DNA of 64,000 bases from Elsinoe ampelina (GCA_010093995.1 ML992515.1:363533-427532), one strand, 5' to 3'; positions 10,144-42,254 are shown, counted from the stretch's first letter. Translations and numbers: made by a program. The notes: a model not told the origin generated them from the letters alone.

Positions 10144-11103
10144 ATGGTGACCGTTGAAGCGCCGGATGAGAAAGGAACTACCACATTACTCGATCCAACT
10201 GGACGTCTTTCAACAATCATGGACGCACCGATGAGCTCTGCAGCTTTCGAGTCGCACCACCAGCAGCGCTCTGGTAGGGATATAGCCGGCGATGACCAGC
10301 ATGTTGCACCCGATACTGCCCCTACCCTCTTAACGCTACCGACGGAGATTCGCCAGAACATCTGGAAGCACGTCTATGCTGGGTCTGAGATTTGCCTGAA
10401 CTATCGGGGCTGTGGCATGATTGTCTATCCAACAACCTCACACGAAAGTATTTCGCCGCACGAGAAGAGTGCCGAAAAGCCATCGTACTGGGAACACTTC
10501 ATGAGCCAGAGAAAGGCCGACAAAGAAGCATGGCGTGACAGTCGCACCCGCCCCGCCATCGCCCTAGCTCTTGTCCATCCGTCGATCTATCAGGAGGTCT
10601 TACGTACTTTGTACGCTTCTACCACCTTCACATATGGTACCGCTATGCCCTACGAGTGTGGGTTCAAATATTTCCATCCGGACGCCAGGGCTCGTGTCAC
10701 ATCTCTGAAAATCAACGCTGGTCTGTGCAGATTTGGTGAAGGGATGTGGAAGCGTGGATCTAAGAAAGCGATCGCTGGGTTGGCCGGGCTCAAGAAGCTG
10801 GAGTACATCACGGTCGCAAGGACGGCAGAAGGACCAGCAACAAATGGCCATCTTCTTCGTTACATCACAGAGGGCTTCCTGAAGCGCCTGGTCGATGCCT
10901 TGCAGGCTCAACCCACAGGAGGAGGACCGAAGTCGCTTCGGAGCATTGATTGTACCGTCGTCATCGAATTCGACGACAACAACAACAGCGATCAGGATTT
11001 CGATTTCTCTTGGGTTCCTGAGCTGGGAGAGCTCTACCCAGTCACACTAATCGCCAAGAGGAGAGAGTTGCCGTACAAGCGTGAACCAGGTGTTGTGTAT
11101 TAA
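10144..11103 (+). CDS. F-box-like/2EXR-type protein, array member 4
   Basis: LLTLPTEIRQNIWKHVYAG; ALALVHPSIYQEVLRTLY; close paralog of member 5. Confidence 0.75.
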   Translation: MVTVEAPDEKGTTTLLDPTGRLSTIMDAPMSSAAFESHHQQRSGRDIAGDDQHVAPDTAPTLLTLPTEIRQNIWKHVYAGSEICLNYRGCGMIVYPTTSHESISPHEKSAEKPSYWEHFMSQRKADKEAWRDSRTRPAIALALVHPSIYQEVLRTLYASTTFTYGTAMPYECGFKYFHPDARARVTSLKINAGLCRFGEGMWKRGSKKAIAGLAGLKKLEYITVARTAEGPATNGHLLRYITEGFLKRLVDALQAQPTGGGPKSLRSIDCTVVIEFDDNNNSDQDFDFSWVPELGELYPVTLIAKRRELPYKREPGVVY

Positions 11104-11567
11104 GGGGGGCTACTGCAAGCAACACACCCAGGGTGGGAAACCTGGCGCTGGTCGATAATGTGTGGGTTGCCTGGTAGTTGCGACTGTGTGGGCGAGGGAA
11201 TTATTCGCCAGATATACCAGTGCCTTCTGCATGATCCAGTGGCTAGGACCCAAATGAGACTTGTATACTACGTTTAGATGATCGTTCCCTCGTATATGCA
11301 GCAAAATCATGTAGCTACAGCCCGGACGTGTGTGATAACTAAGCCGTCACCGTGTGAATCGGCCTGGTAGTATCGAAGCTGGGTGTCGCGGCTGGTTTCA
11401 GGTGGCGTGTACTGGTATCTCGAAGCTTTGTCGGCCTCCTTCTCGCAATCACCAACCACATCGATCTTTTCATCAACATCATCGAAATCACTTCTCATTC
11501 CACGCAGATCCTGCTATCATCGCCATCAATCGCAATGTGGCCTTCGTTGACCAACCCCACTCACAAG

Positions 11568-12744
11568 ATGAAGCCGCCCAAGAATAAGTGTACTCTCAAG
11601 AACGACGGCGTTGTTGACCCTGCCGTCAAAGAAGGCATGACCATACCACGTCGAGCAGAACAGAGTGAACGCGATCTGACTATTCACAGCAGTGCGCGAA
11701 TATCTGGCCGCCGAGAGACGCAGGTTGGGCTTGAGCACTACCACGGAGGACAAGCCGCGGGAATCCAAGAGGGTCACTTTTCGTGAGCCAGACATGGGCG
11801 GGGTAGTCGGAAGGTTCTCGAGCCAGCAAAAGAGCTTGGAAACTACCATCAAGGGGATCGACAAGATGCGCCTATCCAAATCGTCAACAAAGAGATCGTC
11901 GCGCCTCCTACTCCTGCCAGCAGAAATCCGCCGTCAGATCTGGAAAGACGTTTACGCCGGCACAGTGATCATGATCACCGAAACCGGGCACGGCGTGCAT
12001 GATCCGCCCGAATCCGCAAAGGAGCTGTATGAACAGCTCCCTAGTGAGGAAATTCCAAGAGGGGCCACGATCTGGATTCACGGGCTTCCGGGGCAAAGGG
12101 ATTACCGTGGACGACTTGATGGCAAGGAATACTTCAAGATCAGGAAGGAGGTCGAGAACGAAGCCATCCATACCGCTCGCATTCGTCCTGTCCACTCTTT
12201 GGCTCTAGTGTGCAAGTCGATCTCTCAGGAAGCCTTGAGCGCCATGTATGACAACGCAACATTCCACGCCCGAGACTCTGGACGTCTGGAACGATTCGTG
12301 TCTCTGCTGAGTTCTCGTACGATCTCACTCGTCAAGTCCCTTCAGTTCGTCGGGTATGAGGAAAATGATTTACTTCGGCACTGTGGTGAAGTTGAGAAGA
12401 AGGTGCTGGTGCTCAGGCAAGCCGTCAAAGCAATGAGCGGTTTGGAGGAGCTCCATTGCACGTTCTCTGCAGTTACACGGCGGGCACGCTCCGTGATTCG
12501 GGCGGATGCTGAGTGTGCTGAGAGGATTCTGGCCAGCGTCGAGGATGCTTTGCCCATCTCAACCACTAGAGAAGACGGTACACTGTCGCTCCGAAAGTTG
12601 AGATGCACGGTCGTCATCCAGTACCTCGGAAGATCCGATGATTCCGAAGAGATCCCCTGGACGGGGAAGGTCAAAGAAGGACCGCATAGATTCAAAGTCA
12701 TATTCGAGAAGGTTGAGCACCGTTGGATTCCGTGGTTCATTTGA
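11568..12744 (+). CDS. F-box-like/2EXR-type protein, array member 5 (possible GC-AG intron ~11635-11689)
   Basis: LLLLPAEIRRQIWKDVYAG; SLALVCKSISQEALSAMY; SLRKLRCTVVI parallels member 4 SLRSIDCTVVI; upstream exon joins in frame via GC donor, ctgac branch, CAG acceptor. Confidence 0.7.
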
Positions 12745-15700
12745 GTATGAGCGCCGTTGCTGGTAGTACATATCGCCGGTAGTGCGGGTACAAGCATTCA
12801 TCGACGCCAATTTCAATGTATGACTAGGCGTGTGGTAGTACTTCGATGGCGTCGTATAGCCGGGACGCTTCTCGATCGAAGATTCAGCGGACGAAATAGT
12901 TAAAATTTGACCAAATCTCGACAGGTGCGATGCTTCTGTTCTCGTTGGAAGCCGTGTGCCCTTGCACCGTGGATAGTAAGGACTGCTAGAGAAACTACCA
13001 AGGCGCAGCGACTCTGGAATGCAGTTGAGCCAAGTCCTGGTAGGTGGCAATTCCGCTGGTCGTGCTTGCCGGCCATCAAAAAGGACACCCCCTCCGCCTG
13101 ACCACCACTTCTGCGTTCGCTACGGTCGAGGAGAACACAGGTATAGGCGGATTGTCATGCAGCCACGCTTCAGGCATTCCATCTCCAAGGCAGGCCACTG
13201 ACTGCCAGAAAGTCTGACTGCTCGATGCCGGATGCTGGAGAAGGTCCATGCAAACTCATCGCAAGGACGCGCCCCAGTGACGAGAGGCGCGTGGTAGTAT
13301 CTGGGCTCAAGATATCGCCAACCCAAGGACTCTCGGCTTCAGGATTTCGCCGATCGACTGGGACGAAAGAGTGTCCAGACAGTCCCTCATGGTGCGACCC
13401 TAGCGCCAGAAGTATCCGGAAAGGACTTCTGCTGAATGGCAATCTCCCAGATCTCGACCGACCTCCTCTCTACATTCTCAGGCGGCTCACGACTGTGGTG
13501 ACTCAAACGCGATGCTGGCAACAAGCGCCAGATGGCCTAGCGTGTCCCATCATCACAGCGACCTGGTATCCCGCCAGATGTGCCTGGGTCCATATGATAC
13601 AATGTACCCAGCTCTTGGTTCTGCTGGAAGCTTGCTGCGCCCTTGAAGGAACCATTCCGCTACGATTTGTGCAGAAGCTTGAGGGTTGACCCGGCGTGTC
13701 GGTCTTCATTCGACCTTGTACTACTGGCTAATCGAAACGGAGATCGTGGAGGCGTTGTGCTGCTCGAGTGTCGACCAGACGCATGTTGTGAGCATCCGAA
13801 CTCGAAGATCCACTGAGGCCCAAGAAAGCAGGGCCGTCGAGTGAGACGGCTGCACAGGCGTCTGGGGCAGCTGAGAGTCTCTTTGACAGAAGGCTTAGAG
13901 GTAGAACATGCAGCTATAGCGCCATGAATGTCCTGCGTGGTATTCGTCGTCGTGATAGGGATCGATAGCTCGCAGACATTGTTGCTCACATCATCCTTGG
14001 CTAGGTGCTACAGGCAGCGTGCGGCGCCATTTGCGGCGGATGGGGAGTTGAGATCCGCATTCGCTACACGCTACGACGATGGCAGAGGACGTTGGGAGCA
14101 TACAAACATTGCCGACGAGTATTCTGGTTGTAATATAGTCGTGAGAGGATGGGTTGGAGAAAGCCGCACGTGGACCCGACTTGATTTTGGATTAGACTTT
14201 TGCCGAGGCCAGCACCTAGTGCTACATACATGTCCATCATGCACCCTGCTTCTTCCTTGGAGCGCTCGTACATATCAGATAATGCTGGTATACAACTCAC
14301 TTCTTGCTCACCTCCCTGCTCTTGTCTACTGTCATGTGCTGCCTTGGAGCTGGTAGTTCCTCGCCCTTTAGACTACCAGACATGGAGCAGCAAGCCGTTG
14401 GTGTTATTGGTGGTGGCCATAGCTGGTAGTTCCCTCCATCCCAAACTACCTGACTTGATGCAAGCGTCTCACATTGTTCATGCCCTGGTGCCTTGAGAGC
14501 TGGTAGCTTTACTCAAGTAATACTACCAGAAATGTCAATCCCAGGCTGCGTGGAGGGACCAGCCGCCACAATGGCTGCTGTTCTGTTGGAATTCGCGGAG
14601 CACCACTCAAGATTGCACGGAGAAGTACTGCCAGAGGTGTAGCGTACTAACATCAGGAGGAAGGACACAGCTCAATTATTTGGTAGTCCTGGCGGTTGGA
14701 TCTATCAGGTCGACCCATGAAATGGACGGATCTGAATTGCAAAGGCACCCGGCCCGGTAGGCGGGCTCTGCAGAATGTGGAACCGAATCAATCTACACCT
14801 AGAGCCATCGCGGCACCTCGGCCAACAAGACACCTCCGTCACTCCTCATCCGACGAGTCTCTCAACCCAGTTCTTTCCCTCCTTTCCGTTCTCAACCTCT
14901 TCTTCATCTGCTCGTGTCTTGCTGGAGTAGGTCTGAGAGTACCGTGACTTTGTGCTGAATATCTGCTAGTGGCTAGCTCGCAAAGTCTTTGTGAACGAAA
15001 AGGCTCTGCAGCCTGAGCTCAATCATGTTGCATGTGGAAGCGGACTAATGCAGGCGGGGCAAACATCCTTGCAAATCCGATGTCGATCAGTGGCGCAGGT
15101 CGTTGTTGTGGTCCCTGCATTGCCTATGCAAACGATCTACGGACGTACCAGGCTACTAAGGAGCATGTCGGCGTACACTGTACCGGAGGTAGGTCCGCCA
15201 GAGGGGCAGGATTGATACGATGTGCCATGGAAAAGTCTGCCCAGTCTACCTTGCCTGCCCGACCGACCAGAATTCTGCGGTGCTAAATCGGCCAGCATGT
15301 CGTTGCTGTCCAATCGAATGGCACTTTGACTTATCTTGGGCGTGCCTTGTACATCTCAGTGGTTGTCGGATGCCAGAAGCGAATTTTAATATTCCGTGCC
15401 TTCGTCGCACGACGTCACCTGGTCTGTATGGACGACTCAAGAGCGTCCGTGATCAATCTTCAGCTCAGGTCATTCTATCACAACAATCTGTCAGGACATT
15501 TGCGTGGTTCCCCTGATGAACTGGTGCTCATGCGAGCACGGGGCAACGCAGTAAATGGGAAGGACGTGTAGCCCGTGAGGTCGTGCTGCAGCCATATCAT
15601 TGCTGGTGGTGTTGTGGAGGGCGGGGATTGTTGCCGAGGCCCCCGGGTTAGGAGGGGGGAGAGATGTGGGGGTAGGGGGAGTTAGTTGGGGGAGATTGGG

Positions 15701-15842
15701 TCCCAACCAATTTTGCAGTGCAGTCTATATCTTCTTCCATCTAATCTTGGGACAGCATATCGATACAGTAGTCCATACCTGGACCGGACCCGCTCAACGG
15801 AACACATCAAGACTTGCCATTCTTGCACTTGCCCTTGCCTTG

Positions 15843-17765
15843 TCAGAATCTGGACTGTGAACCACCATAGCCTTGGAATGGATTCGTACTCGGAGCTGCA
15901 CCGTCATCGAGATCGAATGGGTTGACGCCGGCAAGGTAGTCGGTACCGAGAGGAGAGCGGTTACTACCAGCGCTGAATGAAGTTTGCACACTTGACGTGC
16001 TACCAGCGGGCGGGTTGCTGCGTGGTCGACCAAAGAGGGCGCCAAATGCCTCGCCGGGCGCACTTTTCGGTGCTGGCTTTGGTGGAGGGGGCACATCCGT
16101 TTTACTCTGCACCTCGCCAAACCCTGGTAGTTGTAAATTACCAAGTTTGCTGCCCGAGAGCCCGCTTTTCAGAGGTCTGCTGCCAGAACCGGCCATTCCT
16201 TGGGCAGGGATTGGAGAACCAGGGCCAAATTTTCCCATACGAGGAGATGGAGCGCCGAATACCGGATTTGCAGTACCAGGAGCAGCACCACTGGCCGCTG
16301 GCAATGCGCTCCAAGCGCTGGCAGGTCGCGGAGTTGTGTTTTCGCCTAGATATGGCGCATCTTTCAGGATCTGAGCCTTGAGGGCTCGAACGCGCTCTAG
16401 GCGCGATGCCGGTCGAGTACCGGTATCTTGCTGAACTTCAGTGGCGGATTCGGTGGCGAGCGGCTTGTCCGTCTGTTGGATGTCTGAGAGCTGTTGTCTG
16501 AGAGCAGACCTTTCCTTTGTGGCCTTATTCATCTGTGCCTGGTGCGCTTTTGCTTGATCGTTCTGAATCTGCTGGATCTTGCGGACCTCCCTGCGCCAAT
16601 GGGCGACTTCTGACCGCAGACTGCTCTCGCCCTGTCTCAAAGCAGAGATGTCTTCCTTTCGGCGTCTCTCGTAATCCTGAGCTGCTTCATACAAGCCTTT
16701 GTTGAACATCTTCTCGCGGTCGAACTGTTCGTCCTTCATCCGGCGAAGTCTGGCCTCTGGAGAGCCCTGCAGCTCATGGAGCTGTCTTTGCTCATCGCCT
16801 TCAATTGGGCCTGGTTGATTTTGTCGTATGCCTCCAGCTCTTGGATCTTCACCTGTTGCAAGTTGACTTGGCTTTGGAGTTCTTCACAGGTCTTCTTAAT
16901 ATGTCGAAGAGCCCTTCCCATCGGGGTCTCTGGTTCCGTGTCGGACATTGCTGTAGCGCTGGAGTCTCGTCAATGACCGAACCAGACATGACTGAAATAG
17001 TGACTCACCTACGCTCTGCTTCACCTTCTTGACCAACCTGCACTTCCACATCTTCGACCCTGGACATAGAAGTCCCAAGATTGTCGTCCGCCGAATCAGC
17101 TCTAGCTGTGTGTTCGAGCGCCTGGTCCTTCTTTCGATCTGCTTTTCGGGCCATGTCGATCAGTGTCACCATGGCATCCTCCACCTGATGCAACGACCAA
17201 GCTCCATGTCCGTCGTGCGTGATACCAAGGTCCTGGAGAACTTCCCTGACAGACTGTTTCAATGGATAAAACCGTTGTGACCAGTATGTTGACGCCAGAT
17301 CCTGAGCCAGAACACGTGGAACAATATCTTCTCCTTCGCCCGGAATGTGGAGGCCCAAAAGACGTCCTTGATGCCGGCCTAGAAATTTTTCGAATCGTTC
17401 TGCGGATGTTTCATCATCTCCGTCGTACTGTTCGGCTACGGTGATGATTTGTTCCACAAAATCCTGGCGTGTTGCCTCGACATGTGCCTGCCAGGAGCGA
17501 CAACCGGCGGCCATGCACCTTTCTTCGACGATGGCTGTAGCTTCAGGATTGAGCCCAATTGTATCCATATTATGGCGGAGCTGGGTGACACGTTCGAGCT
17601 TCCTGTGATTCATCTTCATCAGCATGCTGTAAAATGCACCAGGTTCTGGTAGTGCTGTTGCTTTTCAACTACCAGGCCGGAGGAAGGATCTTACCTCAAA
17701 TTTGCAACTGCCTCCCAGAGAGATGCATCGTAATCTTCCAGCGTGATGGGCTTGGTTGAACTCAT
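15843..17765 (-). pseudogene. Orphan coiled-coil protein family A, copy A1 (two introns, one frameshift near 16790)
   Basis: ATG 17765; GT-AG introns 17627-17694 and 16959-17008 join ORFs 17005-17625 and 16736-16948 in frame; continuing into ORF 15843-16739 needs a frameshift; N-domain (VEERCMAAG, TYWSQRFYP, HDGHGAWSLHQVE) matches ORF 23466-25700. Confidence 0.7.
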
Positions 17766-18077
17766 TGTTGCGGTGAAGGGTGAAATTCCGAATTCTGGAC
17801 TGGCACGGAAAATTCTTCAACTCCAAAAGAGGCCAGAAAATGTGCTGATCGCGTTCCGCTTGCCCATACTACAGACCAACTCTAGTGGACTTGTATTGGG
17901 ATGAGAGTTCCAAACGCGGCAAATTTCTGCACCAGTCACCTCAAGGCCTCATTCTAGAGGCATCTAATCACACGGAACGATCGTCAGATGACTTCCGAAT
18001 AGACCCACAAGACCGGTTGCTCTGTCAAGGTGTTTTGTCTGCAATGTCAAGTAGCTCGAGCATAGAGGTCTTTACGT

Positions 18078-18267
18078 GGGAATTGTTATCGAGTGACTAC
18101 GTTTGAATTATTAACGTACCCTAGGGGGTTAAGTAGTACACCCTCTTAAGTAGCAGTTTGTAATTAGCCCGGTCGGAAGTACTTAAGCTATATGTTTTTC
18201 ATGAAGCTTGTCCAGAAATAATGTAGTCACTTAATAACCAAAGCGCGGTCACCCGATAACAATTCCC
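18078..18267. mobile_element. ~190 bp MITE-like element / inverted repeat with 37 bp arms, lightly RIP-mutated
   Basis: gggaattgttatcgagtgactacgtttgaattattaa (18078-18114) vs reverse complement of 18231-18267 gggaattgttatcgggtgaccgcgctttggttattaa; AT-rich interior; no clean TSD. Confidence 0.65.
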
Positions 18268-18510
18268 CTGTTTGAGGTAGGACAGCTCTTCCCCTACCAG
18301 GTCCCAAAATTTTCAAGGTTCAAACAGCATCAATCACGCGCTGGCTCATCTGCCCTAGTCCCGTCTCTGGCCGCCACCGCGGCCTGTTCCCATTGAGCTG
18401 GTGGAAGGAGGCTGCCTTCGAAGTCGCTTGACCCACTCATCTCTCGGCGATCGATCATCGACACGCTCTGCGAGGAACCAATATCTGCGATAATTCACAA
18501 GCTCCCCTCA

Positions 18511-18623
18511 GTCTCACCTATCACATCCGTCTCATCTATCACATCCGTCTCATCTATCACATCCGTCTCATCTATCACATCCGTCTCATCTATCACATCC
18601 GTCTCATCTATCACATCCGTCTC
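18511..18623 (+). repeat. 18-bp tandem repeat (GTCTCATCTATCACATCC) x ~6.3
   Basis: Six consecutive units, only the first with one mismatch, plus a 5-bp partial unit; ~115 bp upstream of the B1 ATG. Confidence 0.97.
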
Positions 18624-18737
18624 CGCTCAGCACTTGAAACGTCGACCGTCAAGAACTTCACCTGCTTCGAGTTTGTTCATCTCACAGACTTAGAAGAGAT
18701 CAGCCGACCCAGGCTGCTCTATCATAATACAGCAGCT

Positions 18738-20608
18738 ATGGTGTCGGCTACCAAGGCCATGTCCAGCGATGATCAGCCACCTCCCGAACCGGCACCTCTT
18801 GTTGATGCTCGCTACGTTACTAGTCGCACCGCCAACGCCCTCAACATACTACTAAGTGATCTCACGGAGGCCTCCAAAGCCATCAAAGACCAAGGCACCG
18901 ATGCAGACACTCTAGATGCGGCCGCAGAGGCGGTCACAGAAACAGCAAACGAGGCCAAAGATCTGTTGCGAATGCTCAGGAAAGGTATGGAAGCAAAGCT
19001 ACAATCCTCACAAACATTAAAAAACAGAGTCGTCACCGGTCTGGAGGCTGCAAGTAGCTCGATCGACTCCTCTGCGACCGCCACAGTAGAGGCTCTCGAC
19101 AAGATGGAAAAGGCCACAAGCGCTGCTGTGGAGCGATGCGAGCAGATTGGCGACGTTCAAATTGACCTCACAAACCTTGTAAACGGTGACACTCCACATC
19201 AGCAGGCGTACATGGGCAAGATTCAGGCAATCACAGAGGACATGACGACGTACTATCAACAAGCGTCGAATGACCGCCAATACTTTGTCAATCCAATCGA
19301 CAGACACCCCAACAAACAGCTCACCCAGAGCCGTCTCCAGCATGTTGTGGACGAGAGTTTCCGGCGCCTCATCCAGCCAGCTCTCAGCAAACTTAACTCA
19401 GAAGCCATCCACACCGTCGAGAGTCGCCACCAGGAGCTCATCCAACTTCATGCAGAGGCCGAGCGTCTAAAAACTCAGAATGGACAGCTATACCATCAGC
19501 TTAGCATCGCGACTGGAACAACTGGTGGCAGTTTGGTGGAGACCGACAATGCACAGATGACACAAGTCCAGACCTCCAACCAAGAGCTACGTGCAGCATA
19601 CTCTACACTACTTCAGACCCATGCAACTCTGCAGGCCGAATATGAAAATGCCATGAAAGAGGGAAGGAGGATATTCTCGGAATTGGAATCAGTGAAAAGG
19701 GAATTCCAGCAACTTCAGACCAAATCTCAGGACTACGAGCAATCTAGTGGTCAACAGGTTCTCAATCTCGCCAATCAACTCAGGCAAGAGCAAGAGAAGA
19801 CCCGTAAGCTGCGTTATGACAACGAAGATTTGATCTACAACCAAAACAAGTACAGGTACAGGGAGAGGGCTCATCGAGTGGAGAGTAATATCGAGCTGCC
19901 CGATATCAGTACGTCACGGCTCCGACGACAGGAGGATCATGAAGATTTCCTGGAGGGAGGTTCTGCTCGTCCCCGGAAGCATGGAGCATCGTCGCCGGTG
20001 GGAGCCCACAAAAGCGCGTCAACAGGGTGGTCGTTGAGGCCGACGTGTTGCAATCCTTGATAGCGCAAGCCGCGGACACTCAGAACAGAACTGGTAGTAA
20101 CCAGAGCAACGACGGCATCACTGCTACAGGACAAATCGACTTCGACAATGAACTGGAGCAGCTCGTCCACCAGTACCGCGACCGGGCGCACATTCCTGCT
20201 GGAGTGTGGCAATCTCTTGTCCCCTACAATACACATACCTCAGGGACTAGGTATACCGCTGGCGCTGCACAGAGCCACATGGAAGCGTCAGGCGCAAGCG
20301 TACTCGGTAGACCGGAGCTTGAGAACCAGCTAGCACCACAACCAAATCCCAGCACTCTACGCACCTTTGGCGGTCCACCGCAACATTCAGGCGTTAGCAT
20401 CTTCAATCGAACAGGCTTTCCTGTCACAGAAACTCGTCCCCAACCTGGTGCGTATGATGGCTCGGCTAGCAAGACCGAAGGGTCTCCCGCGCCGAGATAT
20501 GTGCGATTCGATGAAACGCCCAAGCCAACGACAATGGCTTCCTCTTGCCGCCTAACAATCCAGTCAGGTCGGCCCTCCGCCTCCATCAGCCCTTTCGGGT
20601 CATCTTGA
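18738..20608 (+). pseudogene. Orphan coiled-coil protein family B, copy B1 (frameshift near 20010)
   Basis: 440-aa coiled-coil ORF continuing in another frame as KRVNRVVVEADV...; shares RTANAL/RTLDAL, LQH......IQPALSKL/IQH......IAPELQKM and RKHGASSP/KRGATSP with B3. Confidence 0.6.
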
Positions 20609-20789
20609 TGCTTTCGCTACGACTGGGAGGACATATATACCCCTTCGCGGAGGTCCTAGATTTCCTTTCTCCGTAGTTCAATTACATGGTTAGCATTTTT
20701 TCTATAGAAAAACAGTAATGACAACCCTTTTCGATAATCATTTGTCAGTATGTTAGCTATAGACACAGAAATCAAAAACAGTATTCTTA

Positions 20790-21800
20790 CCATCGTTCCC
20801 CTGGTATTTTCATGAGAAGAATACCACCAGGCCGCATGGCTTACCTTGCCTTACCTGTCTCCCTGCCTGAAATCTGGTAGTACCACTTTGAAGGTACTGA
20901 CAGCTTGGACCTTGTTCGTCTTGTCTGCCTCCGGTCTGCCCCTTCACCCTTGAGTCTTTTACAGAATCCTACTACCCTGCCTCATGGCTTCCTCCCTCGG
21001 TGATCTGTTCTCCTGCCCATCGTCTGGCAAGTACTACCAGCTTTCCACTGCTTTGCTGTGCCCACCTGAATCTGTCCTTTCCTCTCTGGTAGTTCCACAG
21101 GAAAAACCTTACCCAGCCGCATGGTTCTGCTTGGTGACCTGTTTTCCCATCTATAATCTGGTAATCTAGCAGCTCAGATACTATCAGGCATGTACCACTT
21201 TGCCTTGTCTGCCACTTGCCCCGTTAGCTCTGGTGGTTGTATCAGAGAAATACTACCAGTGCGTACGTTCACCTTGGAGACCTGTCTCTTGGGCCAGAAT
21301 CTGGTGGTGATACCAGCTCTGCCCTTTGTTTCATCTGCCTGAAGTCCGCGCCTCTCCCTGGTAGTCTTTGAACGTCAAACCGTACCAGGCTGCATGGCTT
21401 GGCTCGTCCTCCTCTGTTCATTCTGGTGATGATGCTCACAAGATCCCGCAAGTCATGTGCTGCCCAGCTTCTCTCTGTAGCCGCAGCCTGACTCTGGTAG
21501 TATCTGGCTGTGAGATCCTACCAGCCTACCATATCGTAAAGCTTACCTTACTCCCGTCTCTTTGTCCTGAAAGGCATGCTTACAGGATCATGACAGCTGT
21601 GCGCCGCTCATCTTAACTACGTGTATGTGTGTGTTGTCCCTCCTGGCTTTCAATTGCGGTAGTGATGCTCGCAAGGTCCTACCAGCTGTGCTCATGAGTT
21701 CGGTCTGCCCCTTCTGATTCTCTTGAGGTCGAGAGGAAGGTGATACCTGATTGCTTCCCTCGCCATACTTGCCTGCTTCTCCTTCTCCATGATATGGTTG
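20790..21800 (+). repeat. Degenerate minisatellite array built from CTGGTAGT-N14-ACTACCAG dyads and gcatggcttacctt..cctgtctccctgcctgaaat linkers
   Basis: Units recur every ~60-140 bp (dyads at 20874, 21158, 21230, 21494, 21657); homologous to 29990-30218 (inverted), 42255-42590 and 46210-46525. Confidence 0.85.
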
Positions 21801-22045
21801 TGCTGTTCGCCCAAGGGTCCAGGCCATACGCTGCCTGAGCCCTCCACCCCCGTCCTGTTCCCCATCCCAACTCTCAATATGCTAGGATAGCTCTCCAAAT
21901 ACAAGTTAATAAGGACGTAATTTTGCTGTACCTCTATACCTCCGCTTCGAGATACTAATAGTATATAACTCCTCAATTAATACTACTATAACCATGATTA
22001 TTTGGCAATACAATCAATCATGATTGATTGTGGTCTTCACTGGTC

Positions 22046-23341
22046 TCAACGTTGTTCGAGTTGTTTGCGGCGGTATGCCTCGCGGTCTTGGTTGACTTTG
22101 ACCTGCTGGTCGTGTGCGTCCTCGGGGAGACCGATGATGCCCAGTTTGATGGTGGTCTCAGGCTTGTCAACAGCCTGTTGCTGTGAGAAGACGCATGCCT
22201 TGCCTGTACCCGCACAGTGTGGGCACTTCTGCCCATTCATAGCCATCTCGTACGTCCAATCTGTGCCTGCTGGGTATGATCCTAGACCCACCGAGTTCAT
22301 ACACCTTGTCCCTCTATTCACAGCTAGGAAGAGGCGGTTGTTTTTGCGCTTTCTTGGGTCCATCGGCTTGTTCGACCAGTGTCCTTGCTTTAATTCAAGG
22401 ATGTGTTTCTTATTTGTGTCACCGACCATGGAAGCGTTAATCCAGGACTCACTGTCGATAAAAGCATCAGTGAGGACAAATCTCTCGGGGGCAGGCAGCT
22501 GGTCGGACCCTGCCGCGGGGGATGACTGGGGGAGGCTGGTGGTGCTGGTGTGGCCACGAAGCTGGCGGACTGATGCCGAAGAACTACCAGCGGCAGAGGA
22601 GCGGTCTATGATACCACCAGGCTTGACGGTAGGCTTCACTGTGCTCGAAGGCTTCGGGGGTGAACCGGTGAAAATAGGATTAGATTTCTGCTTGCGGATT
22701 TGTTTGAAAGGTGAAGCTGGCCGAGGGAGATCTGGTAGGTTGAAGGTTGTTTGCTTGGTCTTGCGATTGAAAAGGCTCTTCAAGGGAATACTGCCCTCAA
22801 CCGACTCAGTGACTTCGCCTGGAATACTCGCAGCCTCCGATGGTGCAGCCTCCGATGGTACTGGAGATGGTCCGAAGCGCGGGTGCAGCTGCCCAAATTG
22901 CCCGCCGCCGAAAGTTGGAATGGGTGTCTCCTCCTGACCGAACCTTTCAGGTTCGCGCCATGGAGTACTACCAGGCTGATTCGCAGTTCCAAAGCTTGCA
23001 AATCCGCTTGGTTGGCCGCCAAACGGCACTGCAGGCACTCCCTGACCGAACAGCTGGGCGGCAGGCGGTGGATTCGTTTGATATAATGAAGCGACGTGTT
23101 GAGCAATCTTTGCCATCAGATGATCGTCTCTGGTGGTAAGGGAAGTATCTGATCGCACTCGCTTCATCGAAGCGCCCGCCGGCGATGTAGGCCCGCGCTT
23201 GCAATGAAGTGAACACCTGGTAGTACCCACGGCACCTGGTAGTAACTTTAGCTGACTGGTTGTTTGATGGATCGATGCGTTGATGGGTTGATGAGCCGAC
23301 GATATGACAAGCGAAAGGAGGGGCGGGAATTGCTCAGACAA
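22046..23341 (-). pseudogene. Family B copy B2, apparently 5'-truncated (C-terminal half only) with Cys-rich C-terminal domain
   Basis: Homology to B3 begins at KRGPTSPAGASMKRVRSDTSL (~23200); conserved C-domain FIDSESWINAS..DTNKKHIL..KQ..W...NRLFLAVNRGTRCMNS...WTYEMAMNGQKCPHC...CVFSQ..KLGIIGLP; N-terminal coiled coil absent. Confidence 0.7.
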
Positions 23342-23465
23342 TAAAAATCGGCCTCCGATTCAGTCACATTCCAACAATTTATACCGTAGCTTCATGGGAC
23401 AGCTGCGCTTCTTGACTTATTTTGAATCATAAGGTAGTACGTAGAATAGCTGTCATCACATCGGA

Positions 23466-25700
23466 TTGATGGCTTTCGCAATGCAGACCTCTAATGCTTC
23501 CAGCAACATCATCGAGACCAAGAACCTGAAAGCAGAAATGCATGCCCTCCGCATCAATCCAAACCAACTCGCCAGTGTCGAAGCCAGATGTATCGACGCA
23601 GGCCGACGAACTCGTCAAGCATTTCGAGAGCTTGAGAAGCAGAAGTCCAGGGCAGCTAGATTGGAGGAACTGGAACATGCGGCAAAGTACCACCCGCAGC
23701 GGCTTCGTGTCGACATTGCAGTCCTTGAAGATGCGGTCGGCAAGTTTGAGGATGATCCAGAGTCTCTTTTATTGCCCAACAGCCTCAATCACAACCCTGA
23801 AGCCACATATTGGGAACAGGTATTCCTCCCTGCCGACAAAGAGATCCGAGAAGCATTCCACAGCGCTCGCGTCCCTCATGACAAGAACGGCGGATGGTCC
23901 ATGCGCCAGGTCGAAGTTGCTGTTCGACAGTTGATCGTTCTGGCCAAACAAGCCAAGGCCTTCCAAAAGCAGGCACAGGATCTCTTGAAAGAGAACAAGG
24001 CCATGAAGCAGGAGGTGGCGAGGCGGTCTGTTCTGGATGGGTCGACCAGTAGAGCGGGGGCCTCGAAGCATGGTGGTTCGACGTCGAGTGGTTCGCAAAG
24101 CTCTTTCATCACAGGCGATGATGCTGGGAAGGACGCTGCAGCCCTTGCTGCGAAGTTGAGTGACACCGAAGTCGACATCACGGTCGCCCAAAAGCAGCTG
24201 GAAGACGCCAATATTCAGAACGAAGAGCTCAAAGCCAGCATTGCGGCTCTGCAAAATCGCAATGAGAGTCTCAACAAACAGGTCATCAGACTCACCAGCT
24301 CTGGAGATGGTAGTACCAATCTCGAGATGGAATCAGCGCTCAGAAATCTCCAGGAAAACGAGACGGTCCGGGAGCAGGCACACACACAGGAGACCAGGCG
24401 TCTGACATACGATCATATCAGTCAGAAGCGAGCTTTGGAGGATGAGCTATTAAATCTGAACGGCGTCCTCGCTCACGTCAGAGGACAGCTTAGTACATTC
24501 CAGAAGCTGCATAAAGCCCAGCGGGATGAGCTAGAAAAGCAGGGCCGAGTGCACCAAGGCGAGCTGAAGAGCGTACAAAAGGCACTCGACGCCAATCGCT
24601 CGGAGTGCGAAGCATTGTCGGTGAAGTTGGCTGGTGGGTCCGAAGGGTCCTCTGAGATAATCATCGCGTTGCAAGCTGCTATCAAGGATGCAACACATGC
24701 CTCAAGACGCATGTTCGAAGCGGCTGCCGTACCTGCTGTATCACAACAGCCGGTCGAGGACACATCACTGGTTCGAAAGTTGAAGCAGATCAGTGACAAT
24801 GCTGCGGCAATAAGGTCGGCACGAGGAAAGTCAAACCTGTCGACGGCCTCCTGGGATGTCTCCTACAATTTGGCAGACCAGTCACCGCGTCCTGACCTTG
24901 ATCACCGCGAATCGACGACTAGAGCCCCGGTAGCTCCACGTTCGGGAAAAGTTGCTCAACCCAAGACAAGGCATCAGGATAAGGCCATCTCCGGCTCGAC
25001 GTTGCCACCGCCTCAGAGAACCTTCGGCTCTGTTGGCAGATTTGCTCCAGCAGGAGAGCCCGATAGGTCGGCTCCGGCCGGTGGATCTACTCCAGTTAGC
25101 GGATCTGCTCCTACCAGCCGGGATGTACCCGCCGGCCGTCATCCACTCGGTGGAACGTTCCAGCAGAGAGCCTTCGGTGTGCCACGCGAACGCGAAAATA
25201 CTCCCTCAGAGGCTACTATCACGCCCGCGACCTCGGTCAGTGGTGCATCTCCTGTCCATTACAACTTCGGTCGTGGAAGCCGCGAACTGGGGCTGCTGGG
25301 AGGAAAAATGCATCTCAAAGAACACGCGCCAGGCTCACCTCCTCTCCACTGTGATTATGATGACAGCGACATGGGCAAATCATTTCCGAAACCGCCTCCT
25401 CTTCCCCGCGAGGATCCCCTCACCGCGAAGCCCAAGCCAAGTCTGATGGAGCAGGCAGTGAGAAAGATGACAGCAGACGCTGAGAGGAATAACAGACGCA
25501 TGCAGGAGGAAATTGTTCGAGGCTTGGCTAGGTCGCCTGCTCCCCTTCCCGGATTGAACGCTTCTGGCCGCGCAAGTCCATTCGCAAACCGCCAGCCTCA
25601 GGCTTGGACACCAAGGGATACAAGGAGGGTGACGGAGAGCGAGCAGGGTCCGGAGCTCTATAACCCCACTCCTGCGAATTGCAGAAAGGCCCCGAAATGA
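23466..25700 (+). CDS. Orphan coiled-coil protein family A, copy A2 (5' exon uncertain)
   Basis: 744-codon ORF; N-domain VEARCIDAG, TYWEQVFLP, HDKNGGWSMRQVE paralogous to A1, then long heptad region and Pro/Ser-rich tail. Confidence 0.75.
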   Translation: MMAFAMQTSNASSNIIETKNLKAEMHALRINPNQLASVEARCIDAGRRTRQAFRELEKQKSRAARLEELEHAAKYHPQRLRVDIAVLEDAVGKFEDDPESLLLPNSLNHNPEATYWEQVFLPADKEIREAFHSARVPHDKNGGWSMRQVEVAVRQLIVLAKQAKAFQKQAQDLLKENKAMKQEVARRSVLDGSTSRAGASKHGGSTSSGSQSSFITGDDAGKDAAALAAKLSDTEVDITVAQKQLEDANIQNEELKASIAALQNRNESLNKQVIRLTSSGDGSTNLEMESALRNLQENETVREQAHTQETRRLTYDHISQKRALEDELLNLNGVLAHVRGQLSTFQKLHKAQRDELEKQGRVHQGELKSVQKALDANRSECEALSVKLAGGSEGSSEIIIALQAAIKDATHASRRMFEAAAVPAVSQQPVEDTSLVRKLKQISDNAAAIRSARGKSNLSTASWDVSYNLADQSPRPDLDHRESTTRAPVAPRSGKVAQPKTRHQDKAISGSTLPPPQRTFGSVGRFAPAGEPDRSAPAGGSTPVSGSAPTSRDVPAGRHPLGGTFQQRAFGVPRERENTPSEATITPATSVSGASPVHYNFGRGSRELGLLGGKMHLKEHAPGSPPLHCDYDDSDMGKSFPKPPPLPREDPLTAKPKPSLMEQAVRKMTADAERNNRRMQEEIVRGLARSPAPLPGLNASGRASPFANRQPQAWTPRDTRRVTESEQGPELYNPTPANCRKAPK

Positions 25701-26218
25701 GCTTCTGATTAGAGCCCATGGCCCTGGTTGGTTGGTGATGAACGACCGGATGGGTGCGGGAACATCTGCGATTATATAGTTGTTATTGAAAGTGGTATAT
25801 AGATGGAGAGACTGTCACGCGCAGACTGACAGGTCCGATCCGCAGATGCTGTCCAGCAGCTCTAGGCTGTCACTTGTGCGATACGGGTCGCCGGTAGGTA
25901 GCGAGCTGTCTGCATGATTCCCAGTGGACCATGACGCGATTCCCTAATTTGGCGCCTGAGCTTGAACGTGAACAGAAAACGCACAGCTTGCTGTCGGGGA
26001 AAGAACGAAGTGCTCTTCAAGCAAACGAGCGTTGTCTGACTTTGCTGCATCCTTTGCCGTGAACTCATTGATGCTCTAACGACGGCTGGCATAAGCTCTG
26101 CATCATCATCGCCTTCTGCATCTTGAGATTCATCCTTTCCCAGCAGTAACGAGAGGCAGGCTGACAGCACTCTTCGCTTCATTGTCTATCTTCTAGCACC
26201 ATCACTGTCATCGCCAAT

Positions 26219-29194
26219 ATGGACGGCAATATGGACGAAGATTATGATATGCTGGACGCATCAGAACCTGATGATACGGAGACCTATACATCCTCTCCTG
26301 GTCTGCGTCGACGACTTTCGAGACGGCCACCTCGCGTACGAGCCCATTCACGCTACCTTGGAGGGACGCAAGATCTTCTGACTGGACCCACGGTAGCCAC
26401 TCCTCCTTCCCGTCCGCGTCCAGTCTATATTGCCTCTTCTGAAACATCTGCGTCGCGTTCTCAGCCAGTCGCCATTGGTAGACCTTCTCTCCCACAGCGA
26501 CCACAACCACAATACTTGCCCAGCGATACCGGTACGCCATTCTCAAGTCTCAGCCTACTCTACGCCTCGGATCCCGCACGCAGTCGTGACGGAACACCGC
26601 GACTGACTTGGCCTGATTCCTCAGATCCCTTACACAGTAGCGAAATCACAGAAGAATCACCACGCAGACGGGAGACACTGCCACGTGAGGAGCAATCACC
26701 ACAGTTAATACCAGGTGAGCACTTGGTAGAAGCTCATCTTCGATCCATGATCCCGCCGGCCAACATCGGTGCTCCATCCTTACCACGACGACTTGGTAGG
26801 AGGGAGGTGGCGACGTCTGGTTTTCGCATCTTCAATCCTGCTGCGGAGCCTGGTTCGATAGATGGCGACGATGGGGAGATCTCGGAGCTCTCAGCGTCGG
26901 TCGTGAGCTCACACTCATCTGACGTGCAGATCACGGGAGGCACAACTCCTCCACGACCGAAGACAAATCAGCAGACGGTCGTAATCAAACAGGAGCCACT
27001 GTCGGACGATGATTTGAAATTCACCTTCAACGATGGTTACGATGACGACGGATATGAAGTGGCCGAGCGTGGAGACGATCAGTATGGCGGCGAAGACGTT
27101 GAGGATGAGGAAAGAGCGGACGACGACGAAGAGCATGGAGATGGGGATAGAAGCTTGGACGGGGATGAGGGCGAGGACAAGGACGATGGCGATGAGCACT
27201 ACGAGCAGGGCGAGGGTGGAACACAATATGAAGAGGCCTATGAGGCTGAGGCACAGACTGAGCACGCTGGCGACTGGCGCGCTACTGCCACTGGTAGGAA
27301 GCTGCCTACGACTCACCAGGCCGGCTCTGACCCCGAGTCTTCGGTGGACCACCCTACGGACGTTCCACGGGATCAGCGACGGGCAGCGCAAAGGATGGAT
27401 TATAATGTTAACAACCATCCTGATTTCGCTAGCTCTCAACTTCAAGTAGAGATGTCCCCCGAACAGGTGGGGCAAGAGCTTCTTCCTACCCTCGTCAACA
27501 GATTTGAGGATGCTTTCGACATAGGATTGGAGAATCGGACAATTCCAGTCAAGAACGAGGAGTCTTTGATTATGGGTCTTCCCCCTTACGAAAGTTTCGA
27601 AAAGTCTCAAGGTTTCCAGACTCTTCAGAGGAGGCGTGAGCATTGGTTGCAACGCGATACAGACAAGTACGACAAGTTCTTCGTCAACACTGACAGAGGC
27701 GCAATGTATGCTACCTACAGGCGACACACAACAATCACTCTTCTGGAACTCATATACGCTATCGACATCGACAGTCCACAGAAGGGCGTTTATAGTGTTG
27801 TCAGCAATCGAAGGGGATCAGCAGGGTTTTGCGAGGATGGCATAGGCATCATGGTACACTTCACCCCCGACATGGTATCCTGCATGCTGAAAGACTGTAT
27901 TGGCGACGCACTGCTTCACGATGAGATTCAGCATGCGTGGCCTACCTCCACCCCCGCTGCCACACCTGGAAACCCACAAGCATCACGGACCGAGATCTAT
28001 GGTCATGTTTTTCGCCGCGAAGGCTTCTCCAAGGAAGCGACAATCCACGGTTTTGCTGGCAACAGACTGATGCGTCCGACTTGCAATGATGTTGCCCTTC
28101 TCTTGCAATGGATGAAGGCGTACGCAGAAGGAGTTACCATCAATCGCGAGGCCGGTGGCGCTGTTGGGGGCGCACAGAGCATTGAGAGAGGCCACATCTG
28201 CGTCCAGATCGATAAAGCCATTCCTTCCGCATACGATACCAATAATTCAGCTCGGCCCGTCAAATCAACAAGGAAGTACATCCGGAATCAAAATGACATT
28301 GACAACGTCCGCAAGTTTATCGAAGCCAATACGGCGCGACTTGAAGGCACCATGCATGCTAGGCGACTGGTGGGGACAGATGAATGTGATTTCGACATCT
28401 TCGAAGCTGGGTACACCGACAATGCTTCCAGGCGCAAGACAGAGCATGCCCGTCACGCGAGCTCCAACCGATTGCTCTACCTCGTCGATGCCATCTTCCG
28501 GACTCTACTTGCTTCTTCAGGCGTTTCAATGATCTACCGCACAATCATGGTCCTCGACAGCCCCGACCAAGCTGGCCTTGCCGAACATCTTGTTACAAAG
28601 CTTGGCGGAGGTTACGTGGAGGATGGCGGTTGCAATGGCACCTACGCAGGACACTCGGTGGGCAAATCACGTACTATCGACCCCTTGATCTATGAATTAC
28701 AGCGGCTTGAGAATGTTCAGCGTGGCGTGGTGACCCACATGGCACAAGTGTTCTTGGAGGAAGCGAACCAGAAGCTCGGCGGCTACAGTGAGGAGACGAC
28801 CAGCATTAGCAAGACACTCGCATACGCCAACGCCAAGATCACGAGAGAAGCCTTGCGGGCTCACGATGTGCTCACAGAAGCCAACCAGTTGCGAGAGTTC
28901 AACAGGGCTCGCATGCTCAAACTGGCCCCGGATGCGCTCAAAGCGATGAGACTGTACACTGTGGTAGATGATCATTTAGAAGACATGATCGATGATTTCA
29001 GTCGATATTCTGCGCTCGACCGCGTCAGCGTGCTAAGTCTGCAGCAAGCCATAGATCAAGCGTCCATGAGTCACCTGAATCCTTTCAAACGGCCACCTCC
29101 TGAGCAGGATCTCACTCAGGAAGCCTCCAGCACAACTCAAGTCACGAAGTCTAGCTCTGCCTACCTGCCCAGCAGCCAGAGGAAGGGACAGTAA
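26219..29194 (+). CDS. 991-aa protein: disordered acidic N-terminus plus putative GIY-YIG-like nuclease domain and helical C-terminus
   Basis: Intact intronless ORF from ATG; ordered motifs EIYGHVF, FEAGYTDNASRRKTEHARHASSN, QAGLAEHLVTKL, GGCN resemble the GIY / YIG-R-H / E / N pattern. The gene is likely real; the fold call is an inference. Confidence 0.55.
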   Translation: MDGNMDEDYDMLDASEPDDTETYTSSPGLRRRLSRRPPRVRAHSRYLGGTQDLLTGPTVATPPSRPRPVYIASSETSASRSQPVAIGRPSLPQRPQPQYLPSDTGTPFSSLSLLYASDPARSRDGTPRLTWPDSSDPLHSSEITEESPRRRETLPREEQSPQLIPGEHLVEAHLRSMIPPANIGAPSLPRRLGRREVATSGFRIFNPAAEPGSIDGDDGEISELSASVVSSHSSDVQITGGTTPPRPKTNQQTVVIKQEPLSDDDLKFTFNDGYDDDGYEVAERGDDQYGGEDVEDEERADDDEEHGDGDRSLDGDEGEDKDDGDEHYEQGEGGTQYEEAYEAEAQTEHAGDWRATATGRKLPTTHQAGSDPESSVDHPTDVPRDQRRAAQRMDYNVNNHPDFASSQLQVEMSPEQVGQELLPTLVNRFEDAFDIGLENRTIPVKNEESLIMGLPPYESFEKSQGFQTLQRRREHWLQRDTDKYDKFFVNTDRGAMYATYRRHTTITLLELIYAIDIDSPQKGVYSVVSNRRGSAGFCEDGIGIMVHFTPDMVSCMLKDCIGDALLHDEIQHAWPTSTPAATPGNPQASRTEIYGHVFRREGFSKEATIHGFAGNRLMRPTCNDVALLLQWMKAYAEGVTINREAGGAVGGAQSIERGHICVQIDKAIPSAYDTNNSARPVKSTRKYIRNQNDIDNVRKFIEANTARLEGTMHARRLVGTDECDFDIFEAGYTDNASRRKTEHARHASSNRLLYLVDAIFRTLLASSGVSMIYRTIMVLDSPDQAGLAEHLVTKLGGGYVEDGGCNGTYAGHSVGKSRTIDPLIYELQRLENVQRGVVTHMAQVFLEEANQKLGGYSEETTSISKTLAYANAKITREALRAHDVLTEANQLREFNRARMLKLAPDALKAMRLYTVVDDHLEDMIDDFSRYSALDRVSVLSLQQAIDQASMSHLNPFKRPPPEQDLTQEASSTTQVTKSSSAYLPSSQRKGQ

Positions 29195-29380
29195 CGATCA
29201 CCTATTTCGGTACAATCTCGATAGTATCTGTAGACGTAGCAACCCAAAAAAGAAAAACACCAGTATCCTTACCTACTCGTGCTCAAGCCATCCGGTGACT
29301 TCGTCTGCCATCTCAAATGTCATCTGTGCTTCTGCTGAACATCGCCCCATTTGCGAGTGTCGTATGAGTCTCAAGCATCG

Positions 29381-29491
29381 GTCAATTGTCATGTATTCGG
29401 TGGTTCCGCGACCCAAAACTCACGTCCGACCCTTCAATACAACACACCCTTCGTACTCGGCACCTCCCCCTCCCTCTCCTTAACCCTACTC
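29381..29491 (-). pseudogene. HIS3: Displaced duplicate of the HIS3 3' end (last 18 codons + stop + part of 3' flank)
   Basis: 29434-29490 encodes [18 protein letters not shown] vs [18 protein letters not shown] at 49755-49811 (53/57 nt identical); flank catgtattc.gtg.ttcc and cacgtc.gacc.ttca also shared; same orientation as HIS3. Confidence 0.95.
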
Positions 29492-29989
29492 AACTCCAGT
29501 CCACAAGGAAAGCGGCTTCTGCTGTCGGGCTGACCACTCCGGACTGCATGAGCACCCTTTCTACCTTTGAGGTCCAAGCACAGAAGGGTAAAGGTAGAGC
29601 AGCGGAGTCTAGCCCCAGCGACTTTTACAAGGTTACGCCTCAGGGTCGGCGGGGTTCTCCAGGAGAATTCTCTAGGTGAAGGGCAGGTAGCGACCGCTAC
29701 TGGGAGGACAGTTCTCGCGGGTGATGCGCACCATGGCAGAGACCCAGAATGGAACGGATGTGCTTTGGCAGTGGGACAAGATCAAATGATAGCAAGAGGG
29801 GACAAGTTGGCTGATATGGAGCCTCCAAGCATGCTCGGAGACTTTTACGATAGACAGTATTGAAACCTTGACTAACATGTCGTGCAAGATCTGTTTCAGT
29901 GATTTTCTTACCCGTTCACGCCGCCCTGGTAGGTGTTTCATGTCGAACTACTAGAGATGGAAAGATTGCAGCTTGGGGCTTGTGTTGTT

Positions 29990-30218
29990 GAAGAAGTCGT
30001 ACTACCAGAATTTCACTGGGGAGATAGGTCATTGACTGCAGGTGAGGCATGCGGCCTGGTAGTATCCCTCGATGAAACTGCTAGAGGCAAAAGGAGAAGG
30101 TCCAGGTGGAGGTAGTAAAGCAGTGTAGAGCTGGTAAAGCCTACTAGGTAGTACAATCACAGGCAGACAAGATGAAGAAGGTCAAAGCTGGTGGTTTTCA
30201 AGAAATAGTACTGTACTA
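29990..30218 (-). repeat. Inverted copy of the CTGGTAGT-dyad minisatellite, continuing at 39776-39802 beyond the transposon
   Basis: aggcagacaagatgaagaaggtcaaagctg...gtacta|ccagatttcgagcagggggacggg matches the reverse complement of 20854-20930. Confidence 0.8.
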
Positions 30219-30399
30219 CAGGGCTTTTCAGTTCAAACGAGCCACCCCCAGGCTTGGCGCACGCTTTACTGACTTCTAAGCTACAAATTTTAGTAGCTAG
30301 AGGTCTAGATAGTATATAGTTATAAATTTGTTATTATTAACTAAAATTAAAGCTCAAATAAGATATAATAAAGATAGTATACCTTTACGTAAGTATATA

Positions 30400-33300: not shown

Positions 33301-33504
33301 TAATGCAAGATAGATACGAACTAGATTTAGTTAGGATATAGTTTAGATTAGTTATGTAATCTTAGTATTATAGCTTAGGCTTCTAGCTGCTTTACTCTTA
33401 ATATTATATGTACTTTATATACTAGCTTTTCTTCTTCTTCTTCTAAGTCTTAATATCTTAACGAATAGACATAATTAACTCCCTTACCTTACTAGTTATA
33501 ATTA
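33301..33504 (+). repeat. 5' LTR
   Basis: Direct repeat of 39289-39492; ends TA..TA are RIP products of TG..CA. Confidence 0.95.
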
Positions 33505-42248: not shown

Positions 42249-42254
42249 ATCGTT

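Follow-up and report, generated by a model that had tools for sequence, protein, structure and literature searches.

The subject of this report is a pair of orphan gene families, A and B, in a 64,000-nucleotide stretch of Elsinoe ampelina DNA (GCA_010093995.1 ML992515.1:363533-427532), hereafter called the window. On balance we lean towards the view that the A and B genes form a decaying, duplicated block of genes for soluble coiled-coil proteins within a lineage-specific island. Four of the genes are arranged as A1(-) B1(+) array B2(-) A2(+) between 15.8 and 25.7 kb; a third B copy, B3(+), is located at 39.8-42.2 kb and has no A partner (Table 1). Order, strands and the position of B3 are as the first-pass annotation had described them. 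In total there is one locus with two A and three B genes. Each of the five copies is either damaged or shortened: frameshifts interrupt A1 and B1, B2 is a half, A2 has lost an exon, and B3 suffers from a stop, a frameshift and a transposon. The layout had been called a mirror image. This is correct for gene order only. A blastn comparison shows no symmetry of the two halves at the DNA level, and the direct alignment of B1 with B2 is not significant (its score is reached by 55-132 of 200 and by 64 of 300 shuffles).

Table 1. Genes, repeats and insertions of the A/B locus and its surroundings, numbered from the first nucleotide of the window (ORF, open reading frame; RIP, repeat-induced point mutation).
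Feature	Position	Strand	Description
Five tandem F-box-like genes	5979-12744	+	DUF7730/2EXR matches in four, weak F-box-like match in the fifth
A1	15843-17765	-	three exons, introns 17603-17694 and 16959-17008; spliced RNA contigs
Inverted repeat	18078-18267		37-nt arms, 81%; A1-B1 divergent intergenic region
Tandem repeat	18511-18623		18 bp x 6.3, almost perfect; A1-B1 intergenic, upstream of B1 start
B1	18738-20608	+	440-aa coiled-coil ORF, stop 20058-20060; frameshift near 20.0 kb; then 221-codon open frame
Central dyad array	20792-21800		CTGGTAGT-N14/15-ACTACCAG, period ~72-76 bp and multiples
B2	22046-23167	-	intact 373-aa ORF corresponding to the C-terminal half of B3; N-half absent
A2	23538-25700	+	720-aa ORF from internal Met
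C	26219-29194	+	991-aa ORF, dispersed family, outside the A/B pair
HIS3-type 3' tail copy (imidazoleglycerol-phosphate dehydratase)	29377-29491		direct repeat of 49667-49812
RIP-mutated multicopy insertion	30217-39777		43-nt terminal inverted repeats, TA on both sides
B3	39840-42248	+	near full-length B: coiled-coil N-half, linker, C-domain
Dyad array 3' of B3	42249-46560		split by RIP-mutated AT-rich block ~42600-46200
D	47114-48454	+	intact 446-aa ORF, orphan, no Pfam match

Judged by their sequences A1 and A2 are paralogs. Their N-domains of about 160 residues are 29% identical over 158-167 columns (E ~1e-15), and the Smith-Waterman score of 164 was reached by none of 200 shuffles in each of three shuffle types. 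Further, intron 1 is located at the same codon and phase in both genes, one nucleotide plus 11 codons ahead of a conserved Met. N-domain homology and intron position uphold the earlier assignment of A1 and A2 to one family. Homology of the C-terminal halves is not demonstrated (28 of 200 local shuffles reach the score), and a relationship of A to B or to D is not detectable. The spliced A1 message comprises a 295-aa ORF (stop at 16738-16736), a frameshift near 16.8 kb, and a second ORF of 298 aa which is open up to 15843. At 16736-16739 (-) the stop of the first ORF and the ATG of the second overlap in ATGA as in stop-restart translation; a frameshift could easily generate this by chance as well. 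A third A1 intron that would keep the frame was considered and dropped: no such joint is present in the contigs of X3 or X4, two sequencing runs introduced below, although contigs drop rare forms. In A2 the upstream exon (~23300-23436, followed by an intron at 23437-23503) holds in-frame stops. A2 misses about 35 N-terminal residues that A1 has, i.e., the first coding exon is lost.

B2 and B3 are likewise paralogs by sequence, with identities of 51-58% in the C-domain and 37% (31-44%) in the linker. B2 is composed of a basic start, a disordered linker and a Cys-containing C-domain; B1 does not have this C-domain. B1 matches the N-half of B3 alone, with 23-25% identity and a score of 121. Of 20,000 composition-preserving shuffles, 6 and 2 attained such a score, for a p of about 1e-4 to 3e-3 (Gumbel p 5e-4 to 3e-3), and B1 and B3 are reciprocal best matches among 177 real ORFs; the bias-corrected phmmer comparison gives an E of 0.9 only. 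We regard B1 as a probable, not a certain, B paralogue, linked through the N-half of B3. Of the single B family that had been proposed the B2/B3 part holds firmly, B1 is attached weakly via B3, and B1 and B2 remain unconnected. A lack of homology of B1 to B2 and B3 had been named as an outcome that would overturn the proposed gene pair; B1 is probably homologous to B3, yet has no significant match to B2. B3 has no start codon at the homologous position, a TAG at 41892-41894, and a frameshift near 42125. A coiled-coil ORF beside a paralogue of gene C (L033) was examined as a B relative and rejected: its score against B3 is 88, and 5 of 300 shuffles reach it.

A1, B1, B2 and A2 are all transcribed. 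RNA and DNA contigs from 4 of 11 matching runs were compared with positions 15001-30000, a stretch outside of which B3 is located. X3 and X4 are two runs from two studies, the conditions of which are not on record. None of the runs is labelled as RNA; the contigs of X3 and X4 are from RNA because GT-AG joints are present there and absent from a DNA run. Contigs of X3 span nearly the full length of A1, B1 (from 18594), B2 and A2; those of X4 span A1, B1 and B2 and reach over part of A2. Over A1, contigs of X1, X3, X4 and X6 have no indel compared to the window. X4 and X6 represent a second genotype which holds A1, B1, B2 and parts of A2 with five substitutions and no gap, neither frameshift region excepted; altogether two genotypes were seen. 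All contigs align to the window without gaps; the frameshifts are therefore real and common to the second genotype, with the reservation that contigs drop rare forms. Assembly error as their source is ruled out by gap-free contigs from several runs.

Past the shifts the frames stay open for 319 codons in A1 and 221 codons in B1 (chance by composition 7e-6 and 5e-4, respectively), which argues that these two breaks are recent. The contig ends of B2 and A2 are only about 10-35 bases apart compared with about 970 bases between the start codons of A1 and B1. This short gap, taken together with a B2 that has no N-half, suggests an internal deletion, bearing in mind that contigs do not show starts. 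The duplications are old because synonymous sites are saturated in every pair (proportion of synonymous differences, pS, 0.74-0.83). The corresponding nonsynonymous values (pN) are below the saturated pS, 0.47 vs 0.83 for the A pair and 0.26 vs 0.79 for the B C-domain, and show purifying selection in the past.

The two B halves at the center of the locus fit together closely. The match of the first B1 ORF to B3 ends at about residue 392, the B2 ORF begins at about B3 residue 393, and this boundary falls right after a shared KxGxxSP motif. One may imagine a functional fission in which the 440-aa N-half from B1 and the 373-aa C-half from B2 would operate as one B by complementation, with A2 as the working A. 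In a variant, a crossover between inverted B copies would have swapped the 3' halves. Transcription of both halves and purifying selection on the B2 C-domain agree with such a scheme. Against this, the open downstream frame dates the B1 break as recent, which the loss in B2 need not be. The identity of the B1 N-half with B3, 25% (20-29%), is below that of the B2 linker, 37% (31-44%), suggesting different paralogue lineages, and the 3' flank of B3 resembles the flank of B1, not that of B2. We consider a functional fission very unlikely.

Own-genome searches with parts of A2, A1, B2, B3 and B1 returned window copies only. The copy counts are lower bounds: the N-halves of B3 and B1 do not find each other, and a remote B could be missed. 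In 40 further stretches, ~390 kb of 28.3 Mb, the A and B profiles had no significant match. Exclusively window-encoded proteins were retrieved with the A N-domain from 5.8 billion proteins (lengths 408-1299 aa), with the A profile from 1.84 billion proteins, and with the B C-domain profile from public proteins of 280-2000 aa and 82-279 aa, a search in which the N-half of B was not included. None of 166 pattern matches in metagenome contigs was confirmed as an A/B locus, a PDB sequence search gave nothing under E 0.15, and the A/B pair is not described in the literature found, which was mostly outside subscription journals and without supplements. In terms of detectable sequence homology the A/B cluster has no counterpart outside of its lineage and classifies as lineage-specific. 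Local paralogues, repeats, rearrangement and broken copies are present together, as in a lineage-specific gene cluster.

Saturated synonymous sites and the absence of a relative from 5.8 billion or 1.84 billion proteins bear out the claim of an old pairing of two orphan families. A second claim, that of a co-inherited module which has repeatedly accumulated, is not borne out. The pair occurs twice at one locus, which is explained by one inverted duplication, and one of the three B genes is without A. Because a single inverted duplication yields both pairs, they are no independent evidence of selection for linkage. Co-inheritance cannot be shown because A/B relatives were found neither elsewhere in the genome nor in public protein sets. 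Independent A or B homologues, which would contradict a module, were not found elsewhere; as there is no second locus or species this outcome is uninformative in either direction.

The highest Kyte-Doolittle mean of any 19-mer is 0.55-0.98 in the seven A/B frames and none exceeds 1.0; by hydropathy all A/B frames are soluble. A simple heptad score marks heptad-rich stretches in A2, A1, B1 and B3 and none in B2. The first-pass annotation had spoken of orphan coiled-coil families: orphan is correct throughout, coiled coil for A1, A2, B1 and B3, not for B2. Basic motifs are present in B2 and B3; the N-parts of the proteins are helical or coiled coil, and A and B have long low-complexity tails. 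The folded parts are short, the remainder is coiled coil or of low complexity. Pfam has no match to the A/B frames at E 0.01 and weak coiled-coil matches only at E up to 10. A nuclease, kinase, HET, NLR or cell-death domain or a membrane segment was not found in A or B by Pfam and hydropathy. The same holds in Pfam for the combination of PD-(D/E)XK nuclease and kinase, for which a direct comparison with Spok sequences was not made. The model of the A N-domain (predicted local distance difference test, pLDDT, 56.5) consists of generic helices with a best Z of 5.8, and the ESM Atlas offers unnamed helical clusters only. The model of the B C-domain (pLDDT 53.5) has no Foldseek match at E 0.001 and a best Z of 3.9. 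Both models have low confidence and resemble no specific fold.

These data bear on the possibility that A/B is left over from a two-gene poison-antidote meiotic driver, or from an allorecognition locus, which decayed after fixation or loss of sex. One gene would poison spores or fused cells without the locus, the divergent partner would protect. In line with this proposal, the two families have stayed closely linked and divergent through a duplication, evolve fast, are orphans and include many pseudogenes next to repeats. The wtf genes of fission yeast also have a divergent partner family, wag, in repeat-linked units (bioRxiv 2022.06.24.497463). Vegetative expression is compatible with drive, as Spok is expressed and toxic in vegetative cells (PMC6660238; also PMC12693581). 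Yet all supporting features fit any orphan cluster. The domains just listed, which characterize known drivers and het genes, were not found, dispersed copies are absent from the own-genome searches, within their lower bounds, and the two genes of Sk-2 have a different arrangement (PMC6185902). The two near-identical genotypes revealed no divergent allele over the covered part of the 15 kb, where a run search finds near-identical sequence only. B3, which is without A, has most lesions, yet A1 and B1 are both broken, so that a poison-first order of decay is not visible. The idea of a driver or allorecognition locus, already raised in the first-pass annotation, emerges neither strengthened nor struck out, and we judge a relic of this kind to be rather unlikely.

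One lead towards known proteins emerged for B. ESM language-model features place the B C-domain at 0.90, 0.89 and 0.87 to ascomycete clusters, a scale not calibrated for protein parts; the nearest cluster, at 0.90, shares 191 of 256 features. The members of these clusters carry DUF3716 in 28% and 91%, or DUF8257 in 29% of cases. Pfam does not detect DUF3716 (PF12511) in B2 or B3 at E up to 10, and hhalign against the B C-domain returns a probability of 0.2. The genome has three DUF3716 matches, none in the window. These three members have six invariant Cys spaced CxxC..C..CxxC..C; B2 has four Cys with one CxxC, B3 has three in the aligned domain. The likeness of the B C-domain to DUF3716 is a lead only, derived from language-model features, and family membership is not confirmed. 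The genomic matches are at L041:1177-1662, L042:1198-1662 and L043:1246-2049; two are 94% identical with similar flanks and are possibly parts of a repeated element. In Zymoseptoria, DUF3716 is present in two genes (REP9-1/2) of the IS3EU-related transposon REP9 which in addition has one orphan gene (PMC8232023). A Fusarium DUF3716 protein has been called orthologous to Neurospora NCU05718 (PMC10776026), and NCU05718 binds double-stranded TTAGGG directly (PMC4650311). By analogy, B may work like a dimeric DNA-binding protein.

The dyad is a more surprising feature than the A/B pair and merits a study of its own. By its sequence, the central array arose through local expansion of a dyad that is found across the genome. 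We counted 204 sites vs 20 in the control for N15 (up to 2 mismatches) and 73 sites vs 1 for N14 (up to 1 mismatch); the window holds 4 of the 24 perfect N14 dyads of the genome. In the window, dyads are found at 6-25, 29.9-30.2, 42.2-42.6 and 46.2-49.2 kb. The spacing is fixed, the spacer is variable, and the dyads are often in tandem at 72-81 bp and mostly intergenic. Half-sites reach a density of 2-6 per kb in the non-coding parts of the island and in the F-box-like array, compared with 0.2 in the flanks. Elsewhere, dyads are often beside housekeeping genes, e.g., RPB2, ADE2, CDC48 and RPL18, with no A/B nearby. These symbols, as well as HIS3, are names which we presume from the Pfam domains of the genes. 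Because the dyad is genome-wide, mostly intergenic and often next to housekeeping genes, it is not A/B-specific. The central dyad minisatellite between the pairs, as annotated initially, does exist; it is no part specific to A/B.

In its architecture the dyad resembles a target of a dimeric DNA-binding protein. A preference for convergent gene ends was not seen: 24 sites are convergent, 24 tandem, 16 divergent, 11 inside and 9 at an edge (n=84), in a count that approximates genes by long ORFs and uses loci picked for holding a dyad. A general intron element was considered and rejected: a donor-like word is within 32 nt at 13 of 45 dyads vs 708 of 4200 random places, and at no fixed distance. 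Intron 1 of A1, spliced in two runs, holds a perfect N14 dyad; the matching 67-nt intron of A2 does not. A scan of metagenomes for tandem dyads gave one unrelated 42-bp repeat, and in the literature delimited above a description of the dyad was not found. Identity between the central array and those at 29.9-30.2, 42.25-42.6 and 46.2-46.5 kb is 72-81%, whereas the neighbouring genes are saturated. The local arrays therefore seem to have been copied or homogenised later than the genes, or to be more constrained. Two half-sites are positioned where the B2-B3 homology ends (~23218-23250), i.e., at the truncation point of B2, and the RIP-mutated insertion sits in a half-site (at TA) about 60 bp before the B3 frame. 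Both coincidences are suggestive only because half-sites are common here.

Every B copy adjoins a dyad array. Together with the 4 of 24 perfect N14 dyads and the DUF3716 lead this invites the thought that A and B are stranded accessory genes of a DNA transposon or selfish element, comparable to the two DUF3716 genes and the orphan gene of REP9. In such an element the dyad arrays would have served B as subterminal binding sites, and C could be an associated nuclease. However, a REP9/IS3EU-like structure, i.e., terminal inverted repeats, target duplication, an integrase-type transposase and several copies, does not bound the A/B block, and the locus is single. The dyads elsewhere are near housekeeping genes without A/B, and in the stretches examined no A or B gene is next to a paralogue of C. 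We hold a transposon origin to be quite unlikely. Distinctly improbable, too, is a remnant two-gene selfish system in which B would be a dyad-specific dimeric DNA binder and A its coiled-coil partner, either as poison or antidote. Copies would have built up at such a locus next to arrays of the site recognised by its own product. Part of the function would be kept by A2 and the C-half B2, both still intact, and possibly by the B1 N-half acting in trans. If true, this would provide a candidate driver for a fungal group in which the literature search turned up no driver, together with a binder of the dyad, whose hundreds of sites are unexplained.

We return to the preferred reading, a decaying block of duplicated coiled-coil genes. 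Initially, one divergent A<-->B pair would have been copied once in inverted orientation, which would produce the mirror layout. A separate event, unequal crossing-over or circle integration, may have added the B3-D block, which has the HIS3 tail as a direct repeat on either side. Later, an internal deletion would have removed the N-half of B2, the old intergenic region and the first coding exon of A2. The frameshifts in A1 and B1 presumably came recently. The dyad arrays would have been copied or homogenised later and probably were substrates for these rearrangements. B would most likely be a dimeric nuclear protein, with coiled coil, basic motif and DUF3716-like Cys domain, that binds DNA or chromatin, A would be a co-transcribed coiled-coil protein, and both may now be dispensable. 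In Neurospora, clusters of lineage-specific genes likewise bring together duplication, repeats and rearrangement in one region (PMC11628664).

Several points weigh against this reading. The ORFs of A2 (720 aa) and B2 (373 aa) are long, intact and transcribed, and hence may be functional. No more than about 10 codons separate the B1 frameshift and the new start of B2 from one shared motif, a coincidence that random decay would seldom produce. The link to DUF3716 fails in Pfam and hhalign (probability 0.2) and for this reason a DNA-binding role of B is just a lead. Without relatives there is no root for the order of events. Finally, decay is silent on the role of the intact pair and is compatible with a spent driver. 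The readings overlap in part, as a spent driver would resemble a decaying cluster too. A decaying orphan cluster clearly illustrates how genes turn over through local duplication in a fungus that has RIP, and as such is of modest interest. A and B would carry more weight if intact alleles were toxic and protective, or if B bound the dyad.

By content the window is fungal with intron-containing genes plus AT-rich blocks that have RIP-type dinucleotide indices. It corresponds to 363-428 kb of a 653-kb contig, i.e., it is mid-contig, between ordinary genes. Pfam identifies MBOAT and GDSL lipase genes on the left side and a HIS3-type dehydratase, an ALA synthase-type aminotransferase and a SNF2/RING helicase on the right side. 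The island in between (~5.9-49.7 kb) comprises the five F-box-like/DUF7730 genes, the A/B genes, C, D, dyad arrays and RIP-mutated insertions. An AT-rich block with a GC of 0.31-0.32 is about 10-30 kb upstream. Across 12.7-49.7 kb there is no Rfam match. The F-box-like genes are strongly diverged and have dyad half-sites in spacers and coding parts. D is a single copy in the genome and the sole member of its 90% cluster. The HIS3-tail direct repeats flank the 20-kb B3-D block, suggesting unequal crossing-over or circle integration. The insertion downstream of C holds an internal 209-nt direct repeat (33298 and 39286), which suggests a nested element. The C family has six further matches on contigs C5, C14 and C16, and two copies face each other at the end of C16. 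C and the copies L030, L031, L032, L033 and L034 share the motif GYT..H..SS.L..LVDA..Y..E..L...Y..GG, which we take to be reminiscent of GIY-YIG-like nucleases; Pfam has no match. MDM2 matches of the C family, at best E 5e-4, were taken as chance.

The wtf proteins of fission yeast are multi-pass membrane proteins. Like A/B, the wtf-wag units consist of divergent lineage-restricted families with a repeated element and many pseudogenes. However, wtf is present at dozens of loci and produces poison and antidote from one gene, whereas the A/B proteins are soluble and their genes are at one locus (bioRxiv 2022.06.24.497463). A coiled coil and a cysteine cluster are common to B and Podospora Spok (PMC6660238); Spok has a nuclease and a kinase, and B neither by Pfam. 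Sk-2 (rfk-1/rsk) of Neurospora also is a two-gene killer/resistance system, yet rfk-1 and rsk are at opposite ends of a large inverted region while A and B are head-to-head (PMC6185902). Like the DUF3716 proteins REP9-1/2 and NCU05718 of ascomycetes, B has a small Cys-containing domain, and by language-model features clusters with DUF3716 are the nearest to it. The differences are four Cys with one CxxC in B2 vs six Cys in the three DUF3716 matches of this genome, the lack of Pfam and hhalign support, and the lack of a transposon structure at B. The 'rummage regions' of Neurospora resemble the A/B locus in having orphan genes, local duplication, repeats, rearrangement and split or fused homologues; they are mostly next to telomeres, whereas the A/B locus is mid-contig and marked by a dyad of fixed spacing (PMC11628664).

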